Position numbers and translations under genes: made by a program
Assembly (NCBI GenBank): GCA_038891615.1
Contig: JAWADY010000002.1
Span: 64,994-128,993 of the forward strand
Direction of reading: 5' to 3'
Source of the DNA: Candidatus Woesearchaeota archaeon
GTDB lineage: Archaea; Nanobdellota; Nanobdellia; Woesearchaeales; ARS49
DNA: 64,000 nucleotides
Notes under the pieces: generated by a model
Database searches by the model: none
What the model was told of the DNA's origin: nothing
Seen by the model: only the letters and a program-made list of their open reading frames with translations
Shown here: piece after piece, positions 8,353-55,158 of the stretch
Position numbering within the stretch: the stretch's first letter is position 1
Layout of the letters: each line of letters starts with the position of its first letter

Positions 8353-8854
8353 TGGCATTGCTGTGTTGAAGGGATTAAAGAGAGCAAAAGGCGGGCAAAT
8401 GGAAATAATTGGTCTAACAATCATCATTCTTCTTGTTATAATTGGGGTGCTTTTTGGAATACAGTTTGTGCTCAAGGCAAAGCCGCCCACAATTGGACGA
8501 GAGTTTAGGGAATCGCAGTACGCAGCCAACTTCCTAAGCACTCTTACAGGTACAACAAGCGCATGTAATGGTTTGAGCATCACACAACTTTTACAGAACT
8601 GCGTGACAAGGACAGGGATTGACTGTCCATCAGGAAAGGGTGCTTGTGAGGAGGTTGAGGCTCTTATAGAAACAATCCTTGATAAAACAATTGGCAAGTC
8701 GGGACAAAACAGAGCATACCAACTTATGGTAAAAGGCAGCAACATTGACATTACTAAGTCTAATCGGGGAGGATGTCCGGGCGAAAAAGAGGTTGCAGAA
8801 CACACACTTCCAACAAGAGCTGGAGTAGTTTCTATACGCCTCGAGTTGTGCTAA
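8333..8854 (+). CDS. Pilin-like protein with class III signal peptide (173 aa)
   Basis: GAGGTGA Shine-Dalgarno 8 nt upstream of the ATG. N-terminus ...KRAKGG|QMEIIGLTIIILLVIIGVLFG. C-terminal part has 4 Cys. Confidence 0.5.
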   Translation: MLEGQPDGIAVLKGLKRAKGGQMEIIGLTIIILLVIIGVLFGIQFVLKAKPPTIGREFRESQYAANFLSTLTGTTSACNGLSITQLLQNCVTRTGIDCPSGKGACEEVEALIETILDKTIGKSGQNRAYQLMVKGSNIDITKSNRGGCPGEKEVAEHTLPTRAGVVSIRLELC

Positions 8855-12543: not shown

Positions 12544-12798
12544 ATGTCAAAAGGTCAAGGCATTTCAATTAATGTTATCATAATAGCTGCGATTGCACTG
12601 CTTGTTCTTGTTGTTCTTTCTGTTATGTTCATAGGCAGGATAGGACTCTTTGGAGTTAAGAGTGTTTCTTGCACAGAACAGGGAGGAACATGTTCTGTTG
12701 ATGTCTGCCCAGCAGGGACAAGGGAGTACACACCTTGGAGGTGCCCTGATACTCCTGAGGGGGCAAAGCAGCGCTGCTGCGTGGCAATAGGGGTGTAA
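12544..12798 (+). CDS. Small Cys-rich pilin-like protein (84 aa), class III signal peptide
   Basis: MSKGQG|ISINVIIIAAIALLVLVVLSVMFIG. C-terminal 45 aa contain 7 Cys. Paralogous to the next two genes. Confidence 0.65.
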   Translation: MSKGQGISINVIIIAAIALLVLVVLSVMFIGRIGLFGVKSVSCTEQGGTCSVDVCPAGTREYTPWRCPDTPEGAKQRCCVAIGV

Positions 12799-12809
12799 GT
12801 GAATTTTCA

Positions 12810-13079
12810 ATGGCAAAAGCGCAAGGGCTGCCAATAAACACAATCATTATCGTTGCGCTAGCACTTGTTGTTCTTTTAGTCATTGCAGCCATTTTTACTG
12901 GTCGTATACAGCTTTTTGGAAGAGCGCTAAGCAACTGCCCAAAAGGAGAGGGGAAGTGGTGCACAGACAACCCTTCGGATTGCGCAGCTGGCAACGCAGC
13001 AGCAAGTCCGCTAAAAAATTGCAACGAAGATGCTGACCCTGAACCAGAAGGGAGCTATTGTTGCATACCATTGGCATGA
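12810..13079 (+). CDS. Small Cys-rich pilin-like protein (89 aa), paralog of 12544
   Basis: MAKAQG|LPINTIIIVALALVVLLVIAAIFTG. The N-terminal 30 aa are almost identical to the upstream gene. C-terminal Cys-rich segment. Confidence 0.65.
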   Translation: MAKAQGLPINTIIIVALALVVLLVIAAIFTGRIQLFGRALSNCPKGEGKWCTDNPSDCAAGNAAASPLKNCNEDADPEPEGSYCCIPLA

Positions 13080-13366
13080 GAATGGGCAAAATGAGCGGAA
13101 AAAAGGGTGCTGAAGCCATTTGGTACATAATCGCGCTTGTCATTGGGCTAATAGTTCTTGTTGTGCTGGTAGCATTATTTACAGGAAAGGTAAAGCTGTT
13201 TGGCAAGGCAGGAGAAGAAATCGAAAAAGGTGTTCGTGGAAATCTTTGTTTTGAGCAGGGTTTTTGTGAAGCGGGCACTGCTTGTCCTCCTGGTTCAACA
13301 GCAATCCCGCGCCCTGCTGCTGGCTGGACAGATTGCACAGGGATTTGTTGCAAGCAAGTTGGATAA
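13076..13366 (+). CDS. Small Cys-rich pilin-like protein (about 96 aa), paralog
   Basis: ATG overlaps the upstream TGA (cATGA). MRMGKMSGKKG|AEAIWYIIALVIGLIVLVVLVALFTG. C-terminal Cys-rich. Confidence 0.6.
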   Translation: MRMGKMSGKKGAEAIWYIIALVIGLIVLVVLVALFTGKVKLFGKAGEEIEKGVRGNLCFEQGFCEAGTACPPGSTAIPRPAAGWTDCTGICCKQVG

Positions 13367-13508
13367 AGTTTTTATACGCAAGAGCCACTTGATTTTTTAT
13401 GCACAAAAGAGGCGTTGAAAAAAGCACTTTGTTATACCTCATCCTAATCCTTATCTTTCTTGCGCTTGCAGCCTATATTCTTGTGAGAATTGCTGGGAGG
13501 ATTTTTGG

Positions 13509-14225
13509 ATGAGCCTGCTCATTGTCAGAAGGAAGGGAATAACAGAAACAGGATTAGTGGCAATAATCCTTGTCCTTGCCTCTGGCATTGTTCTTGGAGC
13601 TCTTGTCTATCAGTTTACTGTTAAGGGGAAGCAGGTTGGCTCTATCGAGCTTTGCAGACAGAATGTGCTAACTGCTAGCAAAGTTGTAGCGCTTGGCAAA
13701 GCAGATATTTGGCCAATCACCAACTGCTTTACAGAAGACCTTGGCAAACTTCCAGAAAAAGAAGAAGAAGCCATTACTCTGATTGCCGAGGGTATTAGGA
13801 AGTGCTGGTACATGTGGGGCGAAGGAAAGCTAACTCCATGGAGCTCTACATGGCTATCAAGAAACATCATGTGTCATGTTTGTACGATGTTTGAGCCAAG
13901 CGCAGAAGTGAGTATTGAAAAGCTTCATGGTTGGATGAGGACTCACAACATTCCTGGCAAAGAATTAACCTACTATGACTTTTTGAAAGAAGGCTACATC
14001 CCTTTCATCTATCCAGCACTTGAAGAAGAAGCCAAAGCCAAAAAAGTTGACCTCACAAAAGGAATGAAATGGGCTGTCTTTTATGCCTATGGAACGCGCG
14101 CGGATTGGCTAAGATTTCCCCTCATTGGTGGACTTGTGCTTGAAGAACCAAAACAAGGCGTTGCCTTCCTGCCGACAAATGAACTCGGAGGCATATGTAC
14201 ATATACTACGATAAAACTCAAATGA
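13509..14225 (+). CDS. Pilin-like protein (238 aa) with class III signal peptide and a Cys-containing globular domain
   Basis: MSLLIVRRKG|ITETGLVAIILVLASGIVLGALVY. Shares CW..WGEGKL...CHVC motifs with the next gene, so the two are paralogs. Confidence 0.6.
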   Translation: MSLLIVRRKGITETGLVAIILVLASGIVLGALVYQFTVKGKQVGSIELCRQNVLTASKVVALGKADIWPITNCFTEDLGKLPEKEEEAITLIAEGIRKCWYMWGEGKLTPWSSTWLSRNIMCHVCTMFEPSAEVSIEKLHGWMRTHNIPGKELTYYDFLKEGYIPFIYPALEEEAKAKKVDLTKGMKWAVFYAYGTRADWLRFPLIGGLVLEEPKQGVAFLPTNELGGICTYTTIKLK

Positions 14226-15145
14226 AAAGGGCGCAAGTAACAACACAGACACTCTTGGTAGTGCTCGTGCTTTTACTCGTAGCAGCTGTCATCTTTATTT
14301 CTTTTCAGACAAGACTCTTTGGCTTAGCAGAAGCCAAAAGTGCAAAGGATGTTTGCAAAACTTCTGTCTATGCCAATGCGCTGCTTGGAAGAAGTGTTGG
14401 AATCTTTTCTTCGGATATAAAATGTCCAACTCAGTATCTTCAGATAGACAATAGTGATGTTGCACATGCAAAGTTTGAGATTGCAAAAGCTCTGTCAGAT
14501 TGTTGGGAACAATTTGGAGAAGGCAGGCTTGAGCTTTTTTCTGGAGAAGGTGTTTTTTGTTCCGTATGTCATTTGATAACTTTTAAGCACAAAGAAAAAG
14601 CAATAAGCGGGCTTTTAGACTATCTTGCAACTAACAAAAAACCCCTTACTGACAAAAGCTATCTTGATTATCTAACAAGCTATCACACTTCAGGAAGCGA
14701 GGTTCTTAAGGCATATGCAGCTGAAAAGCTCCCGCCTGACATTCTTGACCCATCGCGAGGCAACACCTATGCAACAATCTTCTACTATGTCAAGGGTAAA
14801 GACCATGTGAAGGATGTTATTGAAAGAGCCCAAGCAGCAGCACCTGGCATTGGGCTTGAAGCACTTGGTATCGGATTGATAAAGGCAGGCAGTGCAACAG
14901 CTGGCTTGATTTCAGCAACCGGCATTGGTGCGCCTCTAGGTGTAGTTGTTGCAAAGGTCTCAACAATTGTCGGCGGAGTTTTGATTGTTGGCGGAGCAGG
15001 CTATGCCCTCCTCGCTGGTTGGTTCGGCGGAGTCCCTGTAGAATTCCTCTCACAAGTACGCCTCGAGCCTTACAACGAGCAAACGCTTAAAAACCTCGGA
15101 TGCCAAATCCTGCCTGCAGCTGAAAAAGCAGAGGTTGGAAGGTGA
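14222..15145 (+). CDS. Pilin-like protein (about 307 aa), paralog of 13509, with a C-terminal Gly/Ala-rich hydrophobic segment
   Basis: Start ATG overlaps the upstream stop (aATGA). MKRA|QVTTQTLLVVLVLLLVAAVIFISF. Motifs CWEQFGEGRL / CSVCHL match the upstream paralog. Confidence 0.6.
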   Translation: MKRAQVTTQTLLVVLVLLLVAAVIFISFQTRLFGLAEAKSAKDVCKTSVYANALLGRSVGIFSSDIKCPTQYLQIDNSDVAHAKFEIAKALSDCWEQFGEGRLELFSGEGVFCSVCHLITFKHKEKAISGLLDYLATNKKPLTDKSYLDYLTSYHTSGSEVLKAYAAEKLPPDILDPSRGNTYATIFYYVKGKDHVKDVIERAQAAAPGIGLEALGIGLIKAGSATAGLISATGIGAPLGVVVAKVSTIVGGVLIVGGAGYALLAGWFGGVPVEFLSQVRLEPYNEQTLKNLGCQILPAAEKAEVGR

Positions 15146-15279
15146 TGAAAAAAGGCATATCCCGCGAGGCATTTGTTTACATACTCTTGGCACTTATTGC
15201 AATCCTCATTGGAGTAATCTTGATAATTTTTTGGGGAGGCGGGGCAGAAAAGGTCCTTAAGTCTCTTGGTTTGGGATAG
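15145..15279 (+). CDS. Mini pilin-like protein (44 aa), essentially only a class III signal peptide plus TM helix
   Basis: Absent from the ORF track (<60 aa). TGATG overlap with the upstream stop. MKKG|ISREAFVYILLALIAILIGVILIIFWGGG. Confidence 0.4.
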   Translation: MKKGISREAFVYILLALIAILIGVILIIFWGGGAEKVLKSLGLG

Positions 15280-15284
15280 CTCAA

Positions 15285-15641
15285 ATGGACAAAAAAGCTG
15301 TTGCAATAGAAACAATAGTCATCCTTCTCCTTGCACTTGTTGCTCTCCTTTTCTTTACAGTCCTTGGAGGAAAGCAGCTTCAATTGGGCAAGAAAATAAG
15401 CTTTTTCATGCCGGGCTGCCCAAAGGGTGTTTTAATAACCACAGAATGTCCATGTGATGGCCAAAAGATAAGTTCAGGTTATTGCTGTGATTTTGGACCA
15501 AGCCAAAAGCCTTGCTTTTGCGTAGAGCGAAATGTTAATAAGTGCGAGGATTACAAAAAGCAAGAGGATTGTGTAAGCAATCCTTGCCAAGTTCAAACTG
15601 CTTGCACCTTTGAACAAGGTGTTTGCAAAAGGGCTGGTTAA
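15285..15641 (+). CDS. Pilin-like protein (118 aa) with an extremely Cys-rich C-terminal domain
   Basis: MDKKA|VAIETIVILLLALVALLFFTVLGG. 16 Cys in the last 80 aa (CPKG...CPCDG...YCCDFG...CFCVERN...). Confidence 0.6.
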   Translation: MDKKAVAIETIVILLLALVALLFFTVLGGKQLQLGKKISFFMPGCPKGVLITTECPCDGQKISSGYCCDFGPSQKPCFCVERNVNKCEDYKKQEDCVSNPCQVQTACTFEQGVCKRAG

Positions 15642-15645
15642 ATAA

Positions 15646-16071
15646 ATGGCAAAAAAAGGGGTAAGTGGAATACAGGTCGTCATAGCACTTTTGATTGGCA
15701 TCATAGTGCTCTATGTTGTTGTGGCTTTTATGCAAGCACAGTTCAAGAAGGCTGGAAAGAGTATCGAGGAAATAACTCCTTCCACAATCAGCTTTGCGCT
15801 GCAAGGCTGCAGGCTCCAAGCCGCACGAGGTTTTTCTGATGCAGATAAGGATGGATATCCCGACTTTTGTGATGTCTGCGAAGGCGGTGATGACGGAAAG
15901 CACAGCGATGCTGACTGGGTTCCAGATGATTGTGATGCGCATGAAAAAACAAAAGGGCTTCCTGCAAAGGAATGTGGTTGTGAAAAGCCAGAAATGGATT
16001 CTGAAGGCAGGCTGATAAAGAGCTGTGGGAGGCTTCTTTCAATCGAGCCATTTAAGTGCGCGAAAAAATGA
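15646..16071 (+). CDS. Pilin-like protein (141 aa) with Asp/Cys-rich (Ca-binding-like) C-terminal domain
   Basis: MAKKG|VSGIQVVIALLIGIIVLYVVVAF. C-terminus: DADKDGYPDFCDVCEGGDDGKHSDADWVPDDCD. Confidence 0.6.
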   Translation: MAKKGVSGIQVVIALLIGIIVLYVVVAFMQAQFKKAGKSIEEITPSTISFALQGCRLQAARGFSDADKDGYPDFCDVCEGGDDGKHSDADWVPDDCDAHEKTKGLPAKECGCEKPEMDSEGRLIKSCGRLLSIEPFKCAKK

Positions 16072-16088
16072 ATTTGGTAAAATGAAAA

Positions 16089-16949
16089 ATGAGCAAAAGG
16101 AAAGGCCAGGAAGAAGTTGGAAGGATGCTTTGGGAACTTGTTGCGCTGATACTGGCAGTAACTGTTATCATTGGAGGGATATTGTTTTTTGGAAGGGCAT
16201 TTGGATTTATTGGTGAGAGCAAAGAGGAACAGGACACAATCTCAAGCTTTTACAGCCTTGCAACAAAACTAAACGAACTGGCGCTGCTTTCAGAGTCATT
16301 CGTTCATGACAGGCTACCACTTTTTATTGGGGAAGGATTTGTAATTGTTGGCTTTGACAAAGCTGGAGATATTTCTGTCAATGGTTGCAGCGATGAAACA
16401 CATCTTGGAGTTCCAGCTACTGACCTCATCCCAAAGCCAGAGTTCTGTGGCGAGTTTGCTTGCATATGCCTCTATTCTGGCATTAGCGAAGAAGTCGGCG
16501 AGAAGCAGCCAATTTCTTGTGCCAAAATTTTCGCTGACAGATTGATTGGCTTGAGTAGTGCGTATCTTGAAAAAAACTATCCCTCTTTTGAGTCTTTTTG
16601 GAAAAACGCAATGGGCTCTCGTAGGGATAAGCCAGAACTACAAAGGTTCATGGTAACAGGGACAGAGCCTTTTAGCACTCTTCTCGAAAAAGACTATCCT
16701 CTTTTCCCAAGCTTTGAAAGCTACCCCTATACCTATTTTGTTCTTCATGGTGAGTGTGAAAACTGGTGGTTTGATGCCAACTTTGGCACACAAAGCCTCT
16801 ATCTTGAAAAAGTGAGGATAAAAGACAGGAACTATTTATTTATCACCGCAGACATCGAGGACTTTGTAAACAAAAGGGTTGCTGCAATAAAGGATTGGCT
16901 AGAGAAGCAAAAGAGTCAAGAGAAAGCCGAGGGAGGGCTGGTTGGTTGA
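16089..16949 (+). CDS. Pilin-like protein (286 aa)
   Basis: MSKRKG|QEEVGRMLWELVALILAVTVIIGGILFFG. Basic N-terminus, Q at +1, a single N-terminal hydrophobic helix. Confidence 0.55.
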   Translation: MSKRKGQEEVGRMLWELVALILAVTVIIGGILFFGRAFGFIGESKEEQDTISSFYSLATKLNELALLSESFVHDRLPLFIGEGFVIVGFDKAGDISVNGCSDETHLGVPATDLIPKPEFCGEFACICLYSGISEEVGEKQPISCAKIFADRLIGLSSAYLEKNYPSFESFWKNAMGSRRDKPELQRFMVTGTEPFSTLLEKDYPLFPSFESYPYTYFVLHGECENWWFDANFGTQSLYLEKVRIKDRNYLFITADIEDFVNKRVAAIKDWLEKQKSQEKAEGGLVG

Positions 16950-17784
16950 AATGGTTGTGATTGGCAAGCGAGCCGTTGTTCATCCAGTTGCTCTGACAAT
17001 TGCAGAGCTTATTTTAGCCGCAATTATTGTCCTTGCAATGTACAATTTTGCCTCAAGGGCAAGAGAGCCTGGAAGGCTTGAAAAAGAGTTTGTTGCAAAA
17101 GACCTTGGCTTGCTGCTTGACGCCGTTTCCGTTGGCCAAGGGAGTTACTATTTGGTTTACACATCACCAGCCCTTCATCAAGATTTCAAGATTTCTGCAG
17201 GCGCCCACGAGGTTGTTGTTGATGGCTCAAGGCAGCCCTACGCATCTGGGCGTATAGAAATAAAAGGAGATTCCTTTGGAACAGATAAACTTGTGATCTG
17301 GTCTGAAACTGGAATTCTTGGCACGCCTTCAGCAGTCAAAGGTCACCTGCTACAGCTTCCTTGCGAAAGCCCACTGTCTTTTTCAACTGATAGGCAGCTT
17401 GCGGTAGCTGCTGATGATGGTGCCAAACAACTTGTTGAAAGACTTTTTGTCAAGGACTTAGGGAAAAGGCTGTTGTCAAATGATGAGAAAGGCGCAAGTG
17501 CGCTATTAAAAATTTTCACAGGAACAAAAAATGGGACAGCGAAGGCATATTTTTGGAAGGATGATAAGTCAGCAAGGTCGCTTGCATGCGCCCTTTTGAA
17601 CAGCATTGTCGCTTTTGAAGGAACCAATTCAGCCCTTCTTCTTCCGCTTAATCCTGAGCTTGCACCAAAGCGTTTTGCAGAGCTTGAGAAACAAAAGCCA
17701 GCTGTCTTCCTCGAGCTAGGCCCAGACCTTATTTCAAGCCCTGAACTTGCTCAGGCACTTTATGGTGGTGTTCGAAGTGGCTGA
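16942..17784 (+). CDS. Pilin-like protein (280 aa)
   Basis: ...VIGKRA|VVHPVALTIAELILAAIIVLAMYNF. Overlaps the upstream gene by 8 nt. Confidence 0.5.
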   Translation: MVEMVVIGKRAVVHPVALTIAELILAAIIVLAMYNFASRAREPGRLEKEFVAKDLGLLLDAVSVGQGSYYLVYTSPALHQDFKISAGAHEVVVDGSRQPYASGRIEIKGDSFGTDKLVIWSETGILGTPSAVKGHLLQLPCESPLSFSTDRQLAVAADDGAKQLVERLFVKDLGKRLLSNDEKGASALLKIFTGTKNGTAKAYFWKDDKSARSLACALLNSIVAFEGTNSALLLPLNPELAPKRFAELEKQKPAVFLELGPDLISSPELAQALYGGVRSG

Positions 17785-18325
17785 AAGGCAACAAGCAAAC
17801 ATTTTTAGCAAAAAGGCTCAACTCCTTAGCCATCACACAAAATTTCTTTTCATAAGCCTTCCATTTGTTATTATCTCCGCTCTTGCGTTGTTTCTTCTCG
17901 CAAACAGGTTTCTTGAAATAAGAGTAAATACCTTTCCCCTCGAGGCAAACGCATTTGTTGAAAGCATACTCTACTCATCTGCTGGGCTGGCTTATGTTGA
18001 CAATGTAACCGGGATTACCTATTCTGGAATCATAGACATCACAAAACTTGAAGAAAAGGACATTGGAAAAAGGTTGTCTAAGGCTTTTAACTATGGTGAA
18101 GGGCAAAGTTACCTTGCAGCAAAGCTTCTGATTGGTGATAGGACAATTTTCTATAACAACGAACCAGAAGCACCTTGGTATGACCGCTGGAAACCAAAGG
18201 TTGGGCTCAAGGGTGCTGGCGGAGTGCAATCGGTTACTTTTGTTAAATATGTGCTCATCAAAAATGGAAGTATGTTAGAACCTGCAACCGTTTACATAGA
18301 GTTGCTCAAGCCTGGTGAGGGCTAA
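17747..18325 (+). CDS. Pilin-like protein (about 180-190 aa); start codon uncertain, possibly an internal GTG
   Basis: ...FSKKA|QLLSHHTKFLFISLPFVIISALALFLLAN. The single N-terminal hydrophobic helix follows a KKA|Q motif. No in-frame ATG after the upstream stop, so a non-ATG start is likely. Confidence 0.45.
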   Translation: MLRHFMVVFEVAERQQANIFSKKAQLLSHHTKFLFISLPFVIISALALFLLANRFLEIRVNTFPLEANAFVESILYSSAGLAYVDNVTGITYSGIIDITKLEEKDIGKRLSKAFNYGEGQSYLAAKLLIGDRTIFYNNEPEAPWYDRWKPKVGLKGAGGVQSVTFVKYVLIKNGSMLEPATVYIELLKPGEG

Positions 18326-18900
18326 TGGTAATAAATGGAAGAAAAGGCGTTGTTGGGGAGCTATTAGTTGCATTTCTCTCTTTTGCAGGCCTTGCTCTTA
18401 CAATCCTACTCTTCACTTTCATATTCTCTCCAGCAGACTTTCCTGGTCCTCAAACTTTGACCGTGCTTAATGAAGGAGAAACAGATGGCAAACTTAGACT
18501 GCTGACCATTCTTCGCTCACCAGTTGTTTTTGATGGGGAGAAAATAGATTTTGCAGACATGATTGCACTTTGGCAAGGAAAGCAAGAGCCGCTCGAAAGC
18601 ATTCTTCACTCAGAGCTTGAAAAGCTGCTTAATAACAAGCTAAGTTATGAGTTCGAGCATGCTGGTGTCAAATTTGTGCGCACTTATGCTTTTGCCATTT
18701 ATAGCATAAAAGACGATTTAAGTCGTGGCAAAGAACTAATGAAAGTAGAGGCAAGCGGCTATTCAGGAGGTAAAGAAATAGCCTCAACTCATGTTGCATT
18801 AAAGGATGGCAATGTGCTTGAGGTTGTGCTATTTTCAAGCGCGCAAAAAAAGCCATCCAAAACTCCTGTTTCGAGCGCTTCATCCATACCTATAAAATAA
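18325..18900 (+). CDS. Pilin-like protein (191 aa)
   Basis: MVINGRKG|VVGELLVAFLSFAGLALTILLFTFIF. Start overlaps the upstream stop. Confidence 0.5.
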   Translation: MVINGRKGVVGELLVAFLSFAGLALTILLFTFIFSPADFPGPQTLTVLNEGETDGKLRLLTILRSPVVFDGEKIDFADMIALWQGKQEPLESILHSELEKLLNNKLSYEFEHAGVKFVRTYAFAIYSIKDDLSRGKELMKVEASGYSGGKEIASTHVALKDGNVLEVVLFSSAQKKPSKTPVSSASSIPIK

Positions 18901-18901
18901 A

Positions 18902-19870
18902 ATGGTCAAATCAAACAAACGCGCAACAATCTTTTTTGAACCACTAATACTTTTGGGGTTAATCGTTGCTCTTAGCATCGCAGCTATTTCTGTTAGCCAA
19001 AAAAGGTCCTCTTTTGGAACAATTGGCAGACCAGCTGCTGACCTTCTTAATTACAATGACTTTGGTGAAGAACTTCTTTTTAAGGTTGAACAAGCAGCGA
19101 GGTTTGCAGTTCGCGATGCGCTTTATGAGTTGGGTGCAAATGGTTGGAGTGCTGAAGGTCCAAACTTAGGTTGTGATAGCCAGCCAATTGGCAAGCCTTT
19201 GCTTATCGAGAGCTTTCCTACACCACAGGAGATTGTTGAAGAACTAACAAAAATTTCTGATAGGAAGCTTAGGGCTTATTCGCTCAGGGCTTCGCAGCTC
19301 CTTGGTCTTGGGAGGTTGGGCTTCCACTTGCCAACAGGTATTGAATATGAGTGGTTTGTTGAGCACTCTGGTGGGCTGTTGAGAGTGAGTGGCATTGCTG
19401 ACAAGCCAGTTACCTTCTCATTTAGCTCATACGAGGTAGGTAAACCAACACTCTACGGCCAGCCGCTGCCACTGCCAACTGCTTCAGTTGTTTTTATTCC
19501 TCTTGAACGTCCAAAACAGCCAGAAGCCCTGCTCTTGCTTTATGGCAATTATTCGATAAGGCCGTCCTTCACAGTCTGGATAGATTACGACCTTTTCGGC
19601 GTCTATGAAAGAATAAAAGAAGGCGTTGAGCAACTCAAAACAATCATTCAGGAAAACAGGGCTCTTGGTTTTGAGGTGACAGACCTGGCGCTCAAAAACA
19701 AAGTCAAGGAGCTGAATTCTGCGCAGGGAGAGCTTGTTTGGCAAGTCCCTAAGAGGACAAGTGAAGATCCGGCTATCTACTCTTTTGTTATTTCTCATAA
19801 GAAGCAGCTTTTAGGATGCAGTCAGCCTATTCAAATAAGGTTTGCGATGAGAATTCCATTAGCTGCTTGA
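18902..19870 (+). CDS. Pilin-like protein (322 aa)
   Basis: MVKSNKRA|TIFFEPLILLGLIVALSIAAISV. Lies 1 nt after the upstream stop. Confidence 0.5.
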   Translation: MVKSNKRATIFFEPLILLGLIVALSIAAISVSQKRSSFGTIGRPAADLLNYNDFGEELLFKVEQAARFAVRDALYELGANGWSAEGPNLGCDSQPIGKPLLIESFPTPQEIVEELTKISDRKLRAYSLRASQLLGLGRLGFHLPTGIEYEWFVEHSGGLLRVSGIADKPVTFSFSSYEVGKPTLYGQPLPLPTASVVFIPLERPKQPEALLLLYGNYSIRPSFTVWIDYDLFGVYERIKEGVEQLKTIIQENRALGFEVTDLALKNKVKELNSAQGELVWQVPKRTSEDPAIYSFVISHKKQLLGCSQPIQIRFAMRIPLAA

Positions 19871-38264: not shown

Positions 38265-40454
38265 TTAGCCAAATCTAAGGGTTGCTGCCATTATTCTTAG
38301 GGCAATAAAGTTGAAAAGCAGAATCACAAATAGTGCAACGATGGTGTAAAGTGCTGTGCTTCTTATAAGATTCCTTCCAAGCACATAACGCTCGCCAAGC
38401 TTGTCAGCGCCGTTTTCTATGCCGTTTGCAAGGATAGTGAGTATTGCAATAATTTCAACAACATAGATGCCAACAACGAGCTGGAAATAATAAGTCGGTA
38501 TACCATCGCCAAGCAAGCTTGCAATTGAACTAAGCTTTTCTCCAACATCAGGAGTCTGGAGCTTTGAGAATTGGTGTGACAATGCGCCAATGATTGTTGT
38601 TATCATTGATGTTATCCCAATAACTATCCCTGCGATGGTGGGTGCAAGGAAGTTTATTTGTGATTTCATGTCTGCAATTATGTCAGCCATAAGGTCCTTT
38701 AGACGCTCATTAACCCTGTGTATCTCTTTTATGTACCTAGAGACATTCATGAGTGCTTGAGCAGCTATCTTTGGACCTTTCTTTATGCTTTCAACAAGCA
38801 CCTTCATTGAACTTTCCACTACTGCGCTCGGGAAGTATGTTAGTGCACCAATCCGTGGATGAAATATTGCGTCTCTCAATCCAAGTCCAAGCTTTCTTAT
38901 GTTCGTGGAGATGACGGCAAAGAAATTTCCTGAAACAGTTTCTCCCATAACCTCCGCAACGTTACCAACTGCCATTTCGGCAGGAATTCCATCACCAAGT
39001 CTATTTCCAAGTTGGAAAAGGGCAGATGCAAACTCTTCTTCAAGCCTTTTTGTTCGTTCTCTTATTTTTATCACATTGCTGCTTCTCATCCTAAAGTATA
39101 TGCCAAACCCTAACCCAAGCGCAAGTGGGAAAAGAAGAGATATGACAGAAGCACCAAGCCCATAAGGTCCGAGCTTTTTACCTACCAACCTTATCGAATC
39201 CCTGTATTCGAGAAGGCAGATAAGTCTTTTACATGTTGTTGTTTCTGTTTCAGCACCAAAACCCATATCAAATTCTGGTGAAAAGGCGTGAATAAGTAGC
39301 GGTGACATTGCGCCGATGAAGAGAACGCCTGCTATAACTACTGCTACAATTGCGGGATTAATTGTAAGTTCTGTTCTTCCAATCTTCAAAATAATGTTTT
39401 TGTACCTTTTCAGCTCTGGATTTATTTCTGAGATGTCGACATCTCCATATCCAGTTGGCCTTGTTGAAAGAATGTTTGTGCCCAGATGATAAACTCCAAG
39501 TGGCAGCAGTATGTTGTACAGAATGGCAACGTGATACCACTTTACTCCTTCGATAAAGCTTACAAGGAGAGGGAGTATAACAAGTCCAAGAACTGGAAGG
39601 ATTATTCCTAACATATGAAGGGTTGTTATTGGGCTCTTAAGATTATGGGCATAGTGCAGCATCTTTTCATAAGTCTCCTCAAGAATAACATCGAGGCTTT
39701 TGTCAAGGAGAGCCAGTCTTGCCTCTTCAGTAGGCTCGTAAAGCGAACCTTCAATAAGATGGAATGCTTCTACAAACTCTCTGTTCCAGTTTTTCCAGCC
39801 TTCAAGATAAACATCAAGGCTTTCCTTTACTGTATCATAAATTCCTGATTCTACATTCCACAAGACTTTCTTAAGGTCTAGAGAAAGAGGAGGCGCAAGG
39901 TGTTCTGAAGCAAATTGCAATGCAAGCTCGAGGTTCGAGGTATGCCGCATGTAGGTAACAACATAGAAAATGCATAGCACCATCTGATTTGATGCACGCA
40001 TTCTCCAGGTATTCGCAATTGTATATGGAAGATTTCCGAGAAGTGGAAAAAGCAGTATGCCAACAATAGTGCTCAGCATCGCGAAGAAGAACGAACCAAG
40101 AAGTATTGATATTAAAATTCCAAAAAGCATAACTGCAAGCGGTGCAACCGTTGAAAAGGCAACAGCCTCTTCAGGCCTTATTTCAAGGTGTGCAGTCTCG
40201 ATAGCCTCTTTTAGCTTCTCAAGCCTTTCTGTTTTGAGCCTAAGTCTTATCAGCTTTCCAGAGAACCTGCAGAGCTTTTCATAAAATGTCAGAGGTCTGG
40301 GAAACATTTCCTCCTTAAATTCCCTATACTCTCTTGTGATTATCCTTCTTGGAATTTGAGGAGGGCTCTGACCTAACTCCTGCTCAAGTCTTTCTTTGTA
40401 TTTTTGAACGAGAGACTTAACTTCTTCTTTTGCTCCTGGAGAGAGGTTGTTCAC
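38265..40454 (-). CDS. Polytopic membrane protein of the FlaJ/TadC/PilC type (type IV filament assembly platform), oversized at 729 aa
   Basis: Multiple TM helix pairs separated by cytoplasmic helical domains. Immediately downstream of the FlaI/PilB-like ATPase on the same strand. Confidence 0.6.
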   Translation of the reverse strand: MNNLSPGAKEEVKSLVQKYKERLEQELGQSPPQIPRRIITREYREFKEEMFPRPLTFYEKLCRFSGKLIRLRLKTERLEKLKEAIETAHLEIRPEEAVAFSTVAPLAVMLFGILISILLGSFFFAMLSTIVGILLFPLLGNLPYTIANTWRMRASNQMVLCIFYVVTYMRHTSNLELALQFASEHLAPPLSLDLKKVLWNVESGIYDTVKESLDVYLEGWKNWNREFVEAFHLIEGSLYEPTEEARLALLDKSLDVILEETYEKMLHYAHNLKSPITTLHMLGIILPVLGLVILPLLVSFIEGVKWYHVAILYNILLPLGVYHLGTNILSTRPTGYGDVDISEINPELKRYKNIILKIGRTELTINPAIVAVVIAGVLFIGAMSPLLIHAFSPEFDMGFGAETETTTCKRLICLLEYRDSIRLVGKKLGPYGLGASVISLLFPLALGLGFGIYFRMRSSNVIKIRERTKRLEEEFASALFQLGNRLGDGIPAEMAVGNVAEVMGETVSGNFFAVISTNIRKLGLGLRDAIFHPRIGALTYFPSAVVESSMKVLVESIKKGPKIAAQALMNVSRYIKEIHRVNERLKDLMADIIADMKSQINFLAPTIAGIVIGITSMITTIIGALSHQFSKLQTPDVGEKLSSIASLLGDGIPTYYFQLVVGIYVVEIIAILTILANGIENGADKLGERYVLGRNLIRSTALYTIVALFVILLFNFIALRIMAATLRFG

Positions 40455-40482
40455 TAGTCCACCTCTTTTTGCAATTTAGCCC

Positions 40483-42780
40483 TTATCCAATCGCGAATTC
40501 CTTTTTAATACTCCTCTTGAGCCACTCATTCCATTCGAAAAATATTCTTTCTGTATCAAGCCTTCCAACTTCCTCAAGTATCTTATCCGAGATGTTGTGG
40601 AAGGCATCATTTGCAGTTATAACAAACTTTGCCTCAAGAATGTCTGGTCTTTTGAGAGCTCTGGCTGTCTCAACCAGCGTTTCTTTGATTCTTGCTCTTA
40701 AGTTTATGTTCTCCCACACTGCATCCCAGTTGCCAGCCCATTCTTTTACATTTGAAGCAATTGCCTTTAGCACATCGCTGTCGCCAGCAAGAAGGTCTTG
40801 TGTTGGCTGCAGCGTGTCTGTGCGCACATCGTATCTCATCAAATCAACGAAACCTTTCTCTGCAAGAGGGTCTTCTTCCCAAAACTTTCTTACTTCTGTG
40901 ATTTGGGTTATCCTTCTCCACCTATGCAGGCCATCTGGACTTCTTATCGGATTTGCCACAACAATGAGATCTGTCGCCTTAAAGGATGTTCTTGGAACAC
41001 CAAGGTCATTAACAACTCTATCAAAGACACCGTACGGGCTGTCGCCGTGAATCGTTCCAGCAACGACATTTGCGAGGGCACCAACTCTCATTGCTTCGTA
41101 GAGCGCGCGAGCCTCAACAGACCTTACTTCTCCTATGATAAGGCTGCTGTCTCCCAGCCTAAGTGTTGTACGCAAGCCTTCTTCTGCAGGCACTTCTGTT
41201 GTTCCACGGGTCAATGCGCTGGCTACCTTCATAGATTGAATGTTGTAGCCAAGCTCGCGCAGAGAGCTAACTGGTAACTCAAGTGTATCTTCTATGGTCA
41301 ATACTCTTATCCTGCGCATTATCTCTGTCATAAGCGATGCCAGAAAAGATGTTTTTCCTGCAGATCTTGTACCTGCGATTAGCATTGTTCGCGCGCCATC
41401 GATGCAAAAGCTCAGAATGCCTGCGCCAAGAGGGCTAATCATTCTGTTTTCTATGAAAAGTGGAAGAGTCCATGGCTTGTCGCGATGCCTCCTGAAGCTA
41501 TACGCAATACCTGTTGGGTTCAATGGAGCTGTTATTGCCGCAATCCTTGCACGCGCTCTTGGTATAATAAGTTCTGTATCAAGAATTGGATTTGCCTCAT
41601 CAAAAGGCCTATTCGAGAGAAGTCTCAGCTTTGAGGCCCAGCTTTCAGCCTCGCTTGCTGTTGGCACAATGTTTGTCATGCAGTCAGCATAATCAGCCTG
41701 TACAACAAATATTGGAATCCTGCCCATGGGACTGTTAACCGAGATATCCTGTATTTTTTCATCCTGAAGAAGAACTTCAACAAGTCCAAAGCCAACTGTG
41801 TACCTCACTAGGATGTTTGCAAGCTCCTGCAGTTCTTTTTCTCGAAGTTTCAGGCCGCGATACTCCGCAAGTTCCTCAAGAAGGTCAGAACCAATCCGCT
41901 CAAAAACCTGCCTCATACGCTCCGGGTCTACGAACTCTGAGCGTTTTGGCTTGTGTTCTACGATAATATTTCTCGCAGAATCAAGGAGCTCATACTTCTC
42001 CTCACTAAGCTTGAATTCTGGAGGAATAATATGATAAAGGTATTGTACCGTGTTCGGTAGGGAAAAGATGTTGACTTCTGTTCCATTTACAATGTAGCTC
42101 TCAAGCAGCTCTGCATCCGGCGGAAAGCTTGACATTAGTTTGGTAAACATAAAGTCTGGCTTTATTGTCGGCGAAAATATTCTTCTATAAATGTCCCTCT
42201 CGCCAACCTTGTATCCTGCTAATTGCTCTTTTGCAAGCTTGATGAGTGTTGTTTGTTGGAGTAAGCCAAGTGCGTCCTCCACTGCCTTAAGATAGCGCTG
42301 CAGGCACCTCTGGCCTTCGGGAGAGGCATGCTTAAGATATTCTCTTTCTCGTCTTGCAATGCGCTCCAGCTCAACATAAGCTCCCACAGGATCGCTTTTT
42401 AGCATTGTATGTAGGATTGACTGCAGCTCTGTGTATCTCCTTGTTAACCATTTCAAGCACGTCATATCAGATAAGAAGCCATACGCCAATCTTCTGCGTA
42501 GCAGCTCCTTGTACGCAATTGCTATCTCATTAAGTATTGCTGTTTGAGTGCCATCATATTCATAATCGCGCTTTTGCACAAAAACAATTCTTGTAACTGT
42601 GCCAACCTCTGCAAGAATGTCAATTGTCATTGACATTGTTTTTGGAGAATCTTCAATTGAGGGAAAAAATGTGCAGGCCTCTGCATCTATTCTAAGAATT
42701 ATCTCCTCACCTTCTCTTATAATCTCGTAGCTGAAACAACCTCTATCAGGCATGTGAAGTCCTCCCACCTCTTTGAGCAA
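40483..42780 (-). CDS. Type II/IV secretion-family ATPase (archaeal FlaI/PilB-like) with about 250-aa N-terminal extension
   Basis: Walker A GTRSAGKTSFL. Asp and His boxes of the GspE/VirB11 family (VLTIEDT...; GTIHGDSP). 765 aa. Confidence 0.8.
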   Translation of the reverse strand: MLKEVGGLHMPDRGCFSYEIIREGEEIILRIDAEACTFFPSIEDSPKTMSMTIDILAEVGTVTRIVFVQKRDYEYDGTQTAILNEIAIAYKELLRRRLAYGFLSDMTCLKWLTRRYTELQSILHTMLKSDPVGAYVELERIARREREYLKHASPEGQRCLQRYLKAVEDALGLLQQTTLIKLAKEQLAGYKVGERDIYRRIFSPTIKPDFMFTKLMSSFPPDAELLESYIVNGTEVNIFSLPNTVQYLYHIIPPEFKLSEEKYELLDSARNIIVEHKPKRSEFVDPERMRQVFERIGSDLLEELAEYRGLKLREKELQELANILVRYTVGFGLVEVLLQDEKIQDISVNSPMGRIPIFVVQADYADCMTNIVPTASEAESWASKLRLLSNRPFDEANPILDTELIIPRARARIAAITAPLNPTGIAYSFRRHRDKPWTLPLFIENRMISPLGAGILSFCIDGARTMLIAGTRSAGKTSFLASLMTEIMRRIRVLTIEDTLELPVSSLRELGYNIQSMKVASALTRGTTEVPAEEGLRTTLRLGDSSLIIGEVRSVEARALYEAMRVGALANVVAGTIHGDSPYGVFDRVVNDLGVPRTSFKATDLIVVANPIRSPDGLHRWRRITQITEVRKFWEEDPLAEKGFVDLMRYDVRTDTLQPTQDLLAGDSDVLKAIASNVKEWAGNWDAVWENINLRARIKETLVETARALKRPDILEAKFVITANDAFHNISDKILEEVGRLDTERIFFEWNEWLKRSIKKEFAIG

Positions 42781-42867: not shown

Positions 42868-43368
42868 ATGCCTGAAGAACTGCTGCCGCCGATAGGAACT
42901 AATATCGCGCCTGAACCCGCAAGCCAAGCTACAGAGCCATCCCAACAGCCAAAGCGCCTTTTCAAGTCAAAAATGCCAGAAACGACAGAGCTTTCATCGC
43001 TGCGTGAGGAACTTCTATCACTCAGCACCCGTCTAAGAGTGTCCGAAGAGCGCTATGTTGACTTTCGAAGAAAGCTTCAACTTCTAGAGCAAAACCTTCT
43101 TTCAAACCACAAACGGGTAATGGAAGAAATAAAGCTCCTGCTCTCAGAAACAACAGAGCTAAAAAAGAAGATTGATGAGATTGAAAACAAACTCCTTCTT
43201 ATTGTAAAGGAATTACAACTCACAGCAAAAAGAGAAGATGTGGAAGTAATGAAAAAGTATTTTGAACTTTGGAGCCCAGTTAGTTTTGCAACAATTTCTC
43301 AGGTTGAGAAAATGATTGCAGAAGCGCTACAGGAACGGCAAGGAGATGCCGAAGAAGAAAAGACATGA
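42868..43368 (+). CDS. Coiled-coil protein, divergent from the FlaI-like ATPase
   Basis: Heptad-rich sequence (LREELLSLSTRLRVSEERYVDFRRKLQLLEQNLL...). No TM. Confidence 0.45.
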   Translation: MPEELLPPIGTNIAPEPASQATEPSQQPKRLFKSKMPETTELSSLREELLSLSTRLRVSEERYVDFRRKLQLLEQNLLSNHKRVMEEIKLLLSETTELKKKIDEIENKLLLIVKELQLTAKREDVEVMKKYFELWSPVSFATISQVEKMIAEALQERQGDAEEEKT

Positions 43369-43470: not shown

Positions 43471-44184
43471 ATGCCTTTGTTCGGCCTTTTTGGTAAAAAA
43501 AAGGAAACCCCTCCTTCGCCTTTTGAAGGGCTTAAGCAAGAGCTTGCACCTCCCCTTGTTCAACGAGTCATTTCGCTTCAGCAACAAGGCCTTTCAAACA
43601 GCCAAATCATCGAGGCTCTCCAAAGAGAGGGCTTTGCTCTTGACAAAATTGTGGAAGCATTGAATCAAGCCGCTGCACCTCCGCCTGCTGGGCCCATTCC
43701 TACGGAGATGCCACAAGCCCCTCCACCAACTCCACCGTCAGAGCTTCCTCAAGCTCCTCAACCAGTGCCTGCACCGCCTGCAATGTATCCTGCTGAATAT
43801 CCTGAATATACCTATCCAGCTTACCCAGCCTATCCTGCTGAAGAAATACTTTCCCGAGAGAATGTTGAGGCAATTGCTGAGTCGATAGTTGAGGAGCGTT
43901 GGAAGGAGGCTACAAAAGAGCTTACAAAGTTGAGTGAATGGAAGGAAGCTTCAACAAGAAGACTTGACAAGCTTGAGCAGTCTCTTACGGACCTTAAAGC
44001 TGACATTGATAACCTTCACAAAGCACTCGTTGCAAAAATAAGCGAATACGACAAGAGTCTCATTGATGTTGGCGTAGAACTTAAGGCGATGGAAAAGGTT
44101 TTTCAGAAAGTGCTTCCAAGCCTAACAGAATCTGTTTCAGAACTATCACGAATTACGCAGCGGGTAAAAAAGGCAAAGAAGTAA
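43471..44184 (+). CDS. Protein with small N-terminal helical (HTH-like) domain, Pro-rich linker (PAYPAYPA) and C-terminal coiled coil
   Basis: GLSNSQIIEALQREGF segment. Roughly 60-aa P/A-rich low-complexity linker. C-terminal heptads. Confidence 0.45.
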   Translation: MPLFGLFGKKKETPPSPFEGLKQELAPPLVQRVISLQQQGLSNSQIIEALQREGFALDKIVEALNQAAAPPPAGPIPTEMPQAPPPTPPSELPQAPQPVPAPPAMYPAEYPEYTYPAYPAYPAEEILSRENVEAIAESIVEERWKEATKELTKLSEWKEASTRRLDKLEQSLTDLKADIDNLHKALVAKISEYDKSLIDVGVELKAMEKVFQKVLPSLTESVSELSRITQRVKKAKK

Positions 44185-52739: not shown

Positions 52740-53374
52740 TTTTTCCGTCCTCTGCTTCTGCCTTTGAGCCTGAGCTTCAATGCAAGGTCTTCAAGTTTTT
52801 CCAGCCCATATTTCAGGCTATCAAACTTTTTTCTTAAAGGTTGGTTTCTAAAATCAAATAGGGTCAGTTGTTCATGAATCCCTTCAACAAATGCCTTTAT
52901 CTCAAGCGCAGACCTTTCATTGCCTTTTATCACAGAATTTATGGCTTTTCGCACAAGCTCGCCCACCATATCACAAAGTCCTAGAAGATATATATCTATG
53001 TCAACGCCAAGTTCTTTGGGAGAGAAAAGTCGCTTCTCACTCGCCCAGCCATAGTAGCAGGAAGCCTCAACATACTCTTCCAGAGCCTCTGCATAAGCAC
53101 CAATCATTGCAAGATGTTTGTCACCCTTTACAAGGCTTTCTGCCTCTTTTATTCTGCTTTTTGCAACCCTTAGTGCAGCTGCTGCCGAAGCGAGGTCTTC
53201 TCTATGAAGTGCATAAATTGCCTTTTTGCTTTCCTTTAGAATATCTCTTGATTTCTTTATAAGCTCTTCGCGGGCATAATCAAAAGCCTCTAGCTTCTGC
53301 CTCATGAGCTCAAAAGTCTTTTTGTCAATCATTACTGTAGTTTGTGAGCGCAGCCCTTTTAAATCTATTGCCAC
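52736..53374 (-). CDS. Helical protein, possibly translin-family (COG2178-like)
   Basis: About 210 aa, all-helical, acidic/aromatic patch YAEALEEYVEASCYYGW. Weak assignment. Confidence 0.3.
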   Translation of the reverse strand: MAIDLKGLRSQTTVMIDKKTFELMRQKLEAFDYAREELIKKSRDILKESKKAIYALHREDLASAAAALRVAKSRIKEAESLVKGDKHLAMIGAYAEALEEYVEASCYYGWASEKRLFSPKELGVDIDIYLLGLCDMVGELVRKAINSVIKGNERSALEIKAFVEGIHEQLTLFDFRNQPLRKKFDSLKYGLEKLEDLALKLRLKGRSRGRKK

Positions 53375-53451
53375 GCACTGCTCTGAAACAAAGAAAAGGT
53401 TTATATACTCTCATTCTTCAAAAAAGCAAAAAAGAGAGGTTAAAAAACCTG

Positions 53452-54003
53452 ATGGCCGCGACTGTTCTTGGAAATGTCATTGAGTTTTTTAATAGAATAG
53501 GAATTTACGATGTCGTGCTACCCTTTCTTCTCGTTTTCACAATTGTTTTTGCAATCTTTGAGAGAACAAAGGTTCTTGGAACAGAAAAGATTGATGGGGA
53601 AGTTGTTACAAAAAAGAACCTTAATGCAATGGCTGCCTTTGTAATTGCATTTTTTGTAGTAGCTTCAGGCCAGGTTGTGGAGACAATCACAAAGGTTTCT
53701 GCAAACATGGTTGTTCTTCTCTTTCTTGTGATATTCTTCCTAATGCTTGTTGGCACACTTTACAAAGAAGGAGAATTTGTTGAAAAGGGACTTGAAGGCT
53801 GGCCAAGAAATGTCTTTATTATAGTTCTTACCCTTGGAATCATTCTTGTTTTCCTAGACGGAATAAAAGCAGCTGACGGTCGGAGTTGGTTACAGGTTGC
53901 AACAGATTACCTTCAGCTGAACTGGTCCTCACCTGCTGTTGCCTCAGTAGTGCTCATCCTTCTCGTCATATTCATAATAAACTGGCTAACAAAGGGTAAG
54001 TAG
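53452..54003 (+). CDS. Membrane protein, paralog A of a tandem triplet (unknown family)
   Basis: 4 predicted TM. Shares motif [IVT][YF]D[VA].{2}PF[LV].[VI]F[TV] with the next two genes. Confidence 0.6.
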   Translation: MAATVLGNVIEFFNRIGIYDVVLPFLLVFTIVFAIFERTKVLGTEKIDGEVVTKKNLNAMAAFVIAFFVVASGQVVETITKVSANMVVLLFLVIFFLMLVGTLYKEGEFVEKGLEGWPRNVFIIVLTLGIILVFLDGIKAADGRSWLQVATDYLQLNWSSPAVASVVLILLVIFIINWLTKGK

Positions 54004-54006
54004 GTG

Positions 54007-54579
54007 ATGCAAATGATTTTTCGGCTTCAATTTGGGCCTTATGGCATAGGTTTTAGGGACCTTTTTTATAGACTGCAGGTTTTGGGCGTGTTTGATGTTC
54101 TGATACCTTTTGTTCTAATCTTCACCATTCTTTATGCAGTCCTTCAGAAAGTAGGAGTGTTCAAAGAGAAGAAGTTCAATATTCTCATCTCGCTTGCAAT
54201 AGCTCTTCTCGTAGTTGTCCCTCATGTTGTTGGAGGCTATCCTGCTGGCTTTGATGTAGTTGAAATCATAAACCGCTCGCTCCCGCAAATAGCCTTCCTC
54301 CTCATAGCTTTTGTTCTTTTTCTCATAATGGTTGGGCTTGTCTGGAAGCCACAGAAGGGAACGGAACTTGTGTTTCAAGGGGCTCTTGTTCCAATCATTG
54401 TTGCGCTTATTCTCTTTTTCATCTTTAGCAGTGCGATTTATCAGCAAGCCATTCCGAACTGGCTTTGGTGGATTCTTGATCCAACCTTGCAGATGTTCGT
54501 TGTGATTTTGCTGATATTCGGGCTTGTTGTGTGGTTTGTGACAAGCGGAGCAAAGGAAGAAAAAGAGGGAAAAGATTAA
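54007..54579 (+). CDS. Membrane protein, paralog B of the tandem triplet
   Basis: LGVFDVLIPFVLIFTILYAVLQKVG aligns with A/C. 4 TM. Acidic C-terminal tail. Confidence 0.6.
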   Translation: MQMIFRLQFGPYGIGFRDLFYRLQVLGVFDVLIPFVLIFTILYAVLQKVGVFKEKKFNILISLAIALLVVVPHVVGGYPAGFDVVEIINRSLPQIAFLLIAFVLFLIMVGLVWKPQKGTELVFQGALVPIIVALILFFIFSSAIYQQAIPNWLWWILDPTLQMFVVILLIFGLVVWFVTSGAKEEKEGKD

Positions 54580-54594
54580 AAGAGCTAGTGAAAT

Positions 54595-55158
54595 ATGGCA
54601 ACCCTGCTTGACCTAGGCCTTGTGAGAACTTTTGACGCCCTGTTTCCTTTCCTTTTTGTCTTTGTTGTTGTTTATGGCGTCCTAAGCTACACAAAACTTC
54701 TTGGCGAGAACAAAAGTGTACATGCAATAATTGCATTTATACTTGCCATAGCCGCCCTATTCTCCCGCATTGCTCTAAAGACAATAACCCTCATGGCCCC
54801 ATGGTTCGTTATTCTTTTTGTTTTCGCGATATTTGCAATAATGACTTATCAGCTCTTTGGTGTTAAAGAGGAAGAGATATCTGGACTTTGGAAAAAGTGG
54901 ACAGCTGGTGGTAGCACCATCTTCTATTGGTTATTGGCACTCATACTTATGATAGGACTTGGCTCGTTGTTCACTGTCCTGCGCGAAGAAAGGGCACCAC
55001 CTTTTTTCATCCAAAATGCCACTGTTACTCCAGGCATTCCAGAAGCCCGGATTAGCTTTTGGTCAACAGTATTCCATCCAAAAGTTCTTGGAGCCGCACT
55101 TCTTTTCTTGATAGCATTGTTCGCCATAAAGAGCCTCACAGAGCTTCCAAAGAAATAA
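54595..55158 (+). CDS. Membrane protein, paralog C of the tandem triplet
   Basis: VRTFDALFPFLFVFVVVYGVLSYTKLLG aligns with A/B. 4 TM. Confidence 0.6.
   Translation: MATLLDLGLVRTFDALFPFLFVFVVVYGVLSYTKLLGENKSVHAIIAFILAIAALFSRIALKTITLMAPWFVILFVFAIFAIMTYQLFGVKEEEISGLWKKWTAGGSTIFYWLLALILMIGLGSLFTVLREERAPPFFIQNATVTPGIPEARISFWSTVFHPKVLGAALLFLIALFAIKSLTELPKK

Follow-up and report, generated by a model that had tools for sequence, protein, structure and literature searches.

Which machine is built by a secretion-type ATPase and its polytopic membrane partner when no archaellum gene accompanies them? This question is raised by two adjacent genes at positions 38265-42780 of a 64,000-nucleotide stretch of contig JAWADY010000002.1 from a Candidatus Woesearchaeota archaeon, here called the window. 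A first-pass annotation had described an oversized FlaI/PilB-like ATPase and a FlaJ/TadC-like platform, and had proposed that the two are the motor for distant pilin arrays in the same stretch. The two open reading frames (ORFs), of 765 and 729 amino acids (aa), lie exactly where they had been placed. We consider it fairly probable that the pair forms the central motor of a type IV pilus (T4P)-like, that is type IV filament, system in a lineage related to the halobacterial 'subclade 4F'. In the DPANN archaea this motor would have become larger and unlinked from pilins, gained coiled-coil neighbours and come under very strong constraint. The features of the pair on which the argument relies are as follows.

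38265..40454, minus strand: platform protein gene, predicted divergent TadC/PilC/GspF-like, 729 aa from GTG
38655..39074, minus strand: predicted cytoplasmic helical bundle 2 of the platform, aa 461-600, 73% identity among homologues
39165..39422, minus strand: platform insert with short beta strands, aa ~345-430, model strands 354-365 and 398-413
39615..40004, minus strand: predicted cytoplasmic helical bundle 1 of the platform, aa 151-280, helices taken from the model, 78% identity, the most conserved segment
40483..42780, minus strand: ATPase gene, predicted secretion/T4P-type, 765-aa ORF from TTG 42780
40834..41493, minus strand: RecA-like catalytic domain of the ATPase, defined by invariant alignment columns, 83% identity among homologues
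41347-41373, minus strand: Walker A motif 'GTRSAGKTS' of the ATPase, conserved core GTRSxGKTS
42184..42753, minus strand: N-terminal extension of the ATPase, aa 1-190 of the 756-aa form

The ATPase

Judging from its sequence, the first protein is predicted to belong to the archaeal FlaI/TadA/GspE group as a highly divergent ATPase of the type IV pilus type, its catalytic motifs being intact. Its residues 373-609 matched Pfam T2SSE (PF00437) with 47.3 bits against a cut-off of 24.9. Residues G461, T462, R463, G466, K467, T468 and S469 were invariant across 28 ATPase sequences, as were 'GEVR' (541-544) and 'TIHG' (567-570), so that both the Walker B/Glu motif 'IIGEVR' and the His-box 'GTIHG' are kept without exception in the alignment. 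The top NCBIfam model was TadA (TIGR03819, 110.5 bits vs a cut-off of 373), followed by FlaI (NF058587, 107.5 vs 550), the curated cut-offs of both being missed; BasE gave 46.4 bits vs 1000. By sequence and by fold, the best solved relatives were afGspE, CpaF and FlaI, with afGspE and CpaF outscoring FlaI.

NCBI annotates the ATPase with 765 aa. However, translation more likely begins at the ATG at 42753, for a protein of 756 aa, because a 100%-identical database twin has 756 aa and the homologues share the consensus 'Mxxxxx-C-G', in which six residues are followed by a conserved Cys. The alignment with afGspE begins at about residue 246 of the 765-aa ORF and that with the Haloterrigena ATPase (see below) at residue 189 of the 756-aa form, indicating ~190 extra N-terminal residues; the N-terminal extension proposed at first pass is thus real. 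Domain analysis of this end gave no Pfam or NCBIfam match (N-terminal 245 aa), but the extension was confidently modelled as a small alpha/beta domain, which holds the conserved C6 and C27, and a four-helix bundle. The C-terminal 136 aa also matched neither Pfam nor NCBIfam. Cysteines of the window protein are at positions 6, 27, 99 and 150; C6, C24 and C27 are nearly invariant in the family, C24 being present in most homologues. The ATPase was modelled as a monomer, in which the catalytic domain came out with low confidence (pLDDT <50 for aa 454-594).

Four ATPase homologues (P0037, P0053, P0089 and P0119) were ~1250 aa long, ~500 aa longer than the others, and carried LAGLIDADG and intein-splicing Pfam domains. 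Just downstream of the platform gene, loci L005 and L006 also have weak LAGLIDADG ORFs that stand free. Inteins favour conserved essential proteins.

The platform protein

The platform gene begins 28 nt downstream of the ATPase gene on the same strand, and an identical protein is on record from a Woesearchaeota metagenome-assembled genome (MAG; GCA_038896715.1, contig JAWACO010000001.1). By predicted fold and by context this protein is PilC/GspF-like, although by no sequence family model. Its AlphaFold model (pLDDT 80, pTM 0.73) has ~9 transmembrane (TM) helices and the two cytoplasmic bundles, and a hydropathy scan gave ~8 segments. No other part of the protein is as well conserved as these two bundles. 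A fold search with the model returned 2whn (PilC) at 11.9, 2vma (EpsF) at 10.6, 6bs9 (SpoIIIAB) at 9.1 and 4hhx (TcpE) at 8.1, with generic helical proteins thereafter; the cytoplasmic helical bundle of the PilC/EpsF fold is present. When a canonical T2SSF protein was run on the window by tblastn, the best match was weak and fell on bundle 2 (38616-39125; E 0.41 / E 0.06). The platform family aligned to single canonical T2SSF proteins of another locus, L079 (see below), with hhalign E-values of only 0.005 and 0.14. In a whole-library search the platform-family profile recovered only 1256 representatives, indicating that it stops short of most T2SSF proteins. The extra domains that the first pass had seen in the platform proved to be an insert of ~85 aa and a longer N-terminus. 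The insert has 45% identity among homologues, and it forms a gap in the hhalign alignment to the Haloterrigena platform, where it is largely absent.

Distribution and conservation of the pair

The platform was encoded in at least 525 genomes (scan with one genome per species), which were mostly labelled Woesearchaeota or Nanoarchaeia; more distant members occurred in Aenigmarchaeota, annotated as hypothetical proteins. The ATPase and the platform each have thousands of homologues. The best 120 of each were 57-75% identical to the window proteins, were named, where a name was given, nearly always from Woesearchaeota or Nanoarchaeia, and had lengths of ~750 aa (ATPase) and ~720 aa (platform). 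These lengths are the family norm, and the reading of the pair as anomalously oversized is rejected. It stands only relative to FlaI (513 aa) and afGspE (511 aa), as many archaeal T4P systems are as large; for instance, the tables of Makarova, Koonin & Albers (2016; PMC4858521) give 830 and 678 aa for the euryarchaeal clade-2 PilB and TadC of Haloarcula hispanica. In the Archaeoglobus fulgidus GspE-like ATPase (PDB 2OAP), which has 511 aa, the ~190-aa N-terminal extension is missing, as is part of the C-terminal helical domain.

The ATPase gene was directly upstream of the platform gene on the same strand in 69 of the 71 loci with enough flank (median gap ~30 nt). Around the pair are housekeeping genes for valyl-tRNA synthetase (ValRS), the large subunit of replication factor C (RFC-L), glycyl-tRNA synthetase (GlyRS), a YchF-like GTPase and a RecJ-like protein. 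Mean identities to the window were 66% for the ATPase, 59% for the platform, 48% for GlyRS, 40% for RFC-L and 36.5% for ValRS, each computed over the loci where that gene was found, that is over overlapping subsets of 83 related loci; as these 83 are the best platform matches, the choice inflates the platform figure, and less so the comparison of the ATPase with the aminoacyl-tRNA synthetases. The pair is near-universal and unusually conserved in Woesearchaeota, beyond the neighbouring tRNA synthetases. Nearly every source that names the platform calls it a hypothetical protein, and the literature on DPANN offered only generic FlaI/FlaJ or Tad annotations.

Two records call for a remark. Loci L017 and L067 are on two contigs of one MAG (SRP178908_co1_292), each with a platform gene, which may reflect duplication or strain heterogeneity in the bin. 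Furthermore, 'uncultured Methanosarcinales archaeon' is the title of many records with a Woesearchaeota-type platform, and 'Candidatus Binatia bacterium' that of one; both titles look mislabelled or like placeholders.

A gene pair more conserved than the aminoacyl-tRNA synthetases adjoining it, and placed among housekeeping genes, could also be a motor derived from T4P that has ceased to build ordinary pili. Together with coiled-coil proteins, and perhaps with the TM190 membrane proteins described below, it would then work in a core, possibly essential process such as cell-cell contact, transfer of host material or envelope biogenesis, the pilins being handled by a separate canonical Tad/FlaI-like system. 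We regard this main rival as unlikely, and the evidence on it is taken up again with the pilins and the neighbours. A stronger form, quite unlikely in our opinion, sees in the pair an essential machine of T4P origin, shared across DPANN, which does not assemble ordinary pilins and, with its coiled-coil partners and possibly TM190, mediates obligate cell-cell interaction through a contact or transfer structure. Such a machine would account for both the conservation above tRNA synthetases and the absence of pilin linkage.

Relatives outside DPANN

The closest relatives of the pair that we found outside DPANN are probably the halobacterial 'subclade 4F' (arCOG01818/arCOG01814) systems. In a tblastn search against plasmids, the ATPase matched pHTUR04 of Haloterrigena turkmenica with 36% identity over ~430 aa (229 bits, E 8e-70), far above its match to the other Woesearchaeal ATPase (97 bits; see below) or to any solved structure. 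The gene after the Haloterrigena ATPase encodes a 604-aa 'secretion system protein' with no Pfam match, and the window platform aligned to it in both halves (hhalign probability 99.6%, E 3e-24, 517 columns). Ahead of the Haloterrigena pair are two small pilin-like genes, for a DUF7382 (Asp-rich) and a DUF7311 protein. The 4F locus of Haloarcula hispanica is given in Table S4 of the 2016 survey (PMC4858521) with an Asp-rich component (arCOG07564, 170 aa), a predicted pilin (arCOG10216, 123 aa), the ATPase (arCOG01818, 619 aa) and a TadC protein with 9 TM helices (arCOG01814, 581 aa). The four Haloterrigena genes match this locus in content and size pattern, with DUF7382 on the opposite strand. 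Furthermore, Table S2 of the same survey lists the single clade-4 ATPase of H. turkmenica in the same block as the 4F ATPase.

The Woesearchaeal and halobacterial systems are alike in that the platform gene directly follows the ATPase gene, that the platform is invisible to Pfam T2SSF (arCOG01814 being listed with 9 TM helices), and that the ATPase has an extra N-terminal region with cysteines. An extra Cys-rich N-terminal domain is described as frequent, not universal, among 4F ATPases (Makarova et al., 2016; PMC4858521). However, the N-terminal 188 aa of the Woesearchaeal ATPase did not align to the N-terminus of the Haloterrigena protein (Cys 38, 40, 56 and 66). The Woesearchaeal proteins are also ~110-125 aa longer, the ATPase at its N- and C-termini and the platform through the ~85-aa insert and its longer N-terminus. 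They have no adjacent pilin-like genes (DUF7311/DUF7382, arCOG10216, arCOG04673, arCOG02981 and others); instead of a pilus operon, two divergent soluble coiled-coil genes and housekeeping synteny are found. According to the survey (PMC4858521), whose Table S2 has N. equitans and Nst1 among its entries, nanoarchaeal members likewise stand without adjacent 4F pilin genes.

The haloarchaeal pair (L087; pHTUR04, 9429-28586) is on a 172-kb plasmid, among genes for a Cdc48-like AAA ATPase, an XPB-like helicase, ParA and a HerA/DUF87 ATPase with a coiled-coil insert. The closeness of the last three could suggest a DNA transfer or uptake machine, conjugation- or competence-like, in place of an adhesion filament, and pilus-mediated DNA uptake has been proposed for DPANN (PMC9563170). 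We find this very unlikely: in Woesearchaeota the pair does not keep these plasmid neighbours, the 4F locus of Haloarcula lies on the chromosome and consists of pilin genes, and there is no ComEC, DprA or VirB4/VirD4-type gene nearby in the window.

A degenerate archaellum motor (FlaI/FlaJ), with the remaining fla genes in an ordinary operon elsewhere, might be read from sources that name homologues 'flagellar protein FlaI', and from FlaI being the second-best NCBIfam model and a strong fold match. It is hardly credible, and we take it as effectively excluded by the scores and the genomic context. The ATPase misses the FlaI cut-off widely, while the other Woesearchaeal ATPase reached 257.6 bits with the same model; afGspE and CpaF score above FlaI, and the platform is unrecognisable as FlaJ/T2SSF. 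Beside the pair, FlaH, FlaF/G or archaellin occurred in none of the 83 loci, and neither FlaX/CDE nor any of these is nearby in the window. The nearest relative found outside DPANN is itself a clade-4 pilus-type pair. The first-pass view of a divergent type IV filament-type pair, distinct from the canonical archaellum motor and without fla partners, is therefore upheld. The bacterial Tad system is similar in that CpaF is the second-best solved relative of the ATPase (E 5e-25). However, Tad has two single-T2SSF platforms (TadB/TadC) where here there is one fused 729-aa protein, and the ATPase is below the TadA cut-off.

Pilin-like arrays and a second motor

Pilin arrays do exist in the window, 18-32 kb from the pair, as had been reported:

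6352..8854, plus strand: second pilin-like array, four ORFs, downstream of a 1826-aa surface protein
12544..19870, plus strand: main pilin-like array, recognised by N-terminal features, possible substrates of the pair

Pilin-like ORFs were flagged by a heuristic (a short charged, basic N-terminus, often with K[G/A]Q, then a single hydrophobic helix), which picked 14 ORFs in the window; ten of the pilin-like ORFs were compared with Pfam and matched no pilin family. Homologues of the main-array ORFs were absent near the pair in all 83 loci. Within 10 kb of the pair, pilin-like ORFs occurred at 0.052 per kb (1.26 Mb, 83 genomes) vs a background of ~0.04 per kb, obtained with the same heuristic from the window outside its arrays, indicating no pilin enrichment near the pair. 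Pfam found no archaellin, FlaF/G/H/X, KaiC/FlaH, second T2SSE, T2SSF or A24 peptidase among ~60 window ORFs, and tblastn of canonical references over the whole 64 kb found no archaellum or second-motor gene, which agrees with the first-pass remark that flaB/F/G/H/X are missing. The proposal that the pair drives the distant arrays found no support, with pilin density at background and the only run of three pilin-like ORFs among the 83 loci standing beside another motor. The window arrays could equally be served by a canonical set encoded outside the window.

That other motor is found in the Nanoarchaeia MAG PL25a_bin.96 (L079:12876-21083), where a canonical T4P-like set lies ~5 kb downstream of the conserved pair. 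It has an 827-aa ATPase (T2SSE 8e-36; FlaI model 257.6 bits), a KaiC/ArlH-like protein, three pilin-like ORFs and two single-T2SSF proteins of 275 and 349 aa with weak UpsF matches. The two sets occur in the same archaeal lineage and are the same kind of machine, and the second ATPase, too, has a long N-terminal extension. However, the ATPases are only 25% identical in the core (97-101 bits), the platforms of the second set are recognised by Pfam T2SSF, and its KaiC/FlaH-like partner and adjacent pilin-like genes have not been seen with the pair. Canonical components are thus recognisable in this lineage, and the pair is a distinct and much more divergent paralogue.

A motor that no longer builds an ordinary pilus would gain from several of these results, namely the background density of pilin-like ORFs around the pair and the L079 set of ATPase, two T2SSF proteins and KaiC/ArlH-like protein beside its own three pilin-like ORFs. 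It would also gain from the annotation of flaB/H/I/J/K in most Woesearchaeota MAGs from one lake (PMC11606122), which indicates that recognisable canonical components exist in Woesearchaeota. However, the haloarchaeal relatives of the pair are encoded with pilin-like proteins, archaeal T4P ATPase/TadC operons are often apart from pilin genes according to the 2016 survey (Makarova et al., 2016; PMC4858521), and there is no positive evidence for another substrate.

Around the arrays some other genes were noted. The 1826-aa predicted surface protein (875-6355), with an N-terminal signal/anchor, bacterial TSP3 repeats and an Ig-like domain, is immediately upstream of the first pilin-like ORF (6352) and overlaps it. 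Between the arrays, on the minus strand (8857-11763), are genes for a 656-aa Ser/Thr protein kinase and a PhoU/AbrB(MazE)-domain protein, followed by an Lrp/AsnC regulator at 11902-12393.

Conserved neighbours

The pair has neighbours of its own, listed here:

42868..43368, plus strand: cc166, 166-aa soluble coiled-coil protein, divergent from the ATPase gene across an 87-bp spacer, candidate cytoplasmic partner
43471..44184, plus strand: p237, candidate partner of 237 aa, small helical domain at the N-terminus, then a Pro-rich linker and a coiled coil at the C-terminus
53344..55158, plus strand: TM190, three tandem paralogous orphan polytopic membrane proteins of ~190 aa

The gene for cc166 kept its position and orientation in 39 of the 61 loci with enough flank, and p237 was beside it in 33 of 56; both hold in L004-L006 as well. 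Neither protein could be assigned: cc166 had no match in Pfam, NCBIfam or the PDB, p237 gave weak coiled-coil matches only and nothing informative in the same databases, and BLAST of the two against the Haloterrigena DUF7311 and DUF7382 proteins returned nothing. That both hold the divergent position where other synteny breaks is one more point for a motor detached from pilus building. TM190 is a weaker case. Its genes, without a Pfam match and with the consensus MATxLDxGLL..F...FPFLLV ... HPKVLG, immediately preceded the pair, in the same orientation, in 25 of 44 related loci, with three or four copies in other genomes, but are ~11 kb away in the window. Its 111 homologues came from Woesearchaeota in every source name that gives an organism, and they all lack Pfam domains. 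Translin and the Asp/Asn-tRNA synthetases are co-conserved beyond TM190, so the linkage may be plain synteny, which counts against the use of TM190 as support for a role other than a pilus; an association with the pair may exist but is uncertain. We therefore name cc166 and p237 as the conserved partners of the pair, and TM190 less securely.

After the TM190 trio the window has three consecutive soluble ORFs (55168-56806; 203, 166 and 179 aa) with no Pfam match. They are paralogues of each other by eye and were near the pair in only one of the 83 loci. Farther toward the pair, OapC/OapB (origin-associated) homologues and a small GTPase (46737-48147) adjoin a 720-bp stretch without a long ORF (48148-48866), which may be a replication origin region. 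A direct repeat of 102 nt in this stretch (76% identity, spacing 120) falls within a 77-aa ORF at 48244-48477 (minus strand), which consists of two copies of 'KVGVKKxxGYLYFxDKKGxxSRxKMARGR'.

Proposed function of the pair

If the pair is the motor at the heart of a type IV filament system, the ATPase would form a ring, presumably hexameric, that docks on the conserved cytoplasmic bundles of the platform, and ATP hydrolysis in this ring would drive the platform. Pilin-like subunits anchored in the membrane, processed at their class III signal peptides, would then be extracted by the platform and added to a surface filament, plausibly for attachment to, or exchange with, other cells. The substrates would be encoded in trans, possibly by the arrays of the window, and cc166 and p237 may have a scaffold or regulatory role.

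Several results weigh against this proposal. The platform matched nothing in Pfam or NCBIfam even at E<=10, T2SSF (PF00482) included, and the platform-family profile had no match among PDB sequences at E<=10. Its N- and C-terminal halves aligned with hhalign E 7e-4 and a probability of 26%, only a weak signal of duplication. The placement of the Haloterrigena pair in 4F rests on gene order and the table listing, and the choice of the 83 loci by their platform bears on the conservation values, as said above. No pilin, prepilin peptidase or other filament gene was linked to the pair in the window or the 83 related loci. Finally, no experimental study of any member of the lineage of the pair was found in the literature.

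Significance

The kind of system is known, and its nanoarchaeal presence was noted in the 2016 survey (Makarova et al., 2016; PMC4858521). New here are the fold-level identification of a widespread DPANN 'hypothetical' protein of ~720 aa as a platform, which is a predicted one, the near-universality and conservation of the pair, its conserved non-pilin neighbours and the absent pilin linkage. Recognition of the PilC/TadC type gives a name to a very common orphan family. Because a Haloferax volcanii ATPase (GI 292654911) is in the same clade-4 listing of that survey (PMC4858521), the 4F link would also offer an experimentally tractable relative. For annotation, FlaI/FlaJ labels in Woesearchaeota MAGs are no evidence of motility, and proximity alone is no ground for assigning pilin arrays to the nearest ATPase. 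The finding is of modest importance unless the pair proves to be a machine with no part in ordinary pili. The DPANN archaea are believed to rely on physical contact with a host, by machinery that is largely unknown, and a filament or contact motor conserved so widely among them may belong to it.

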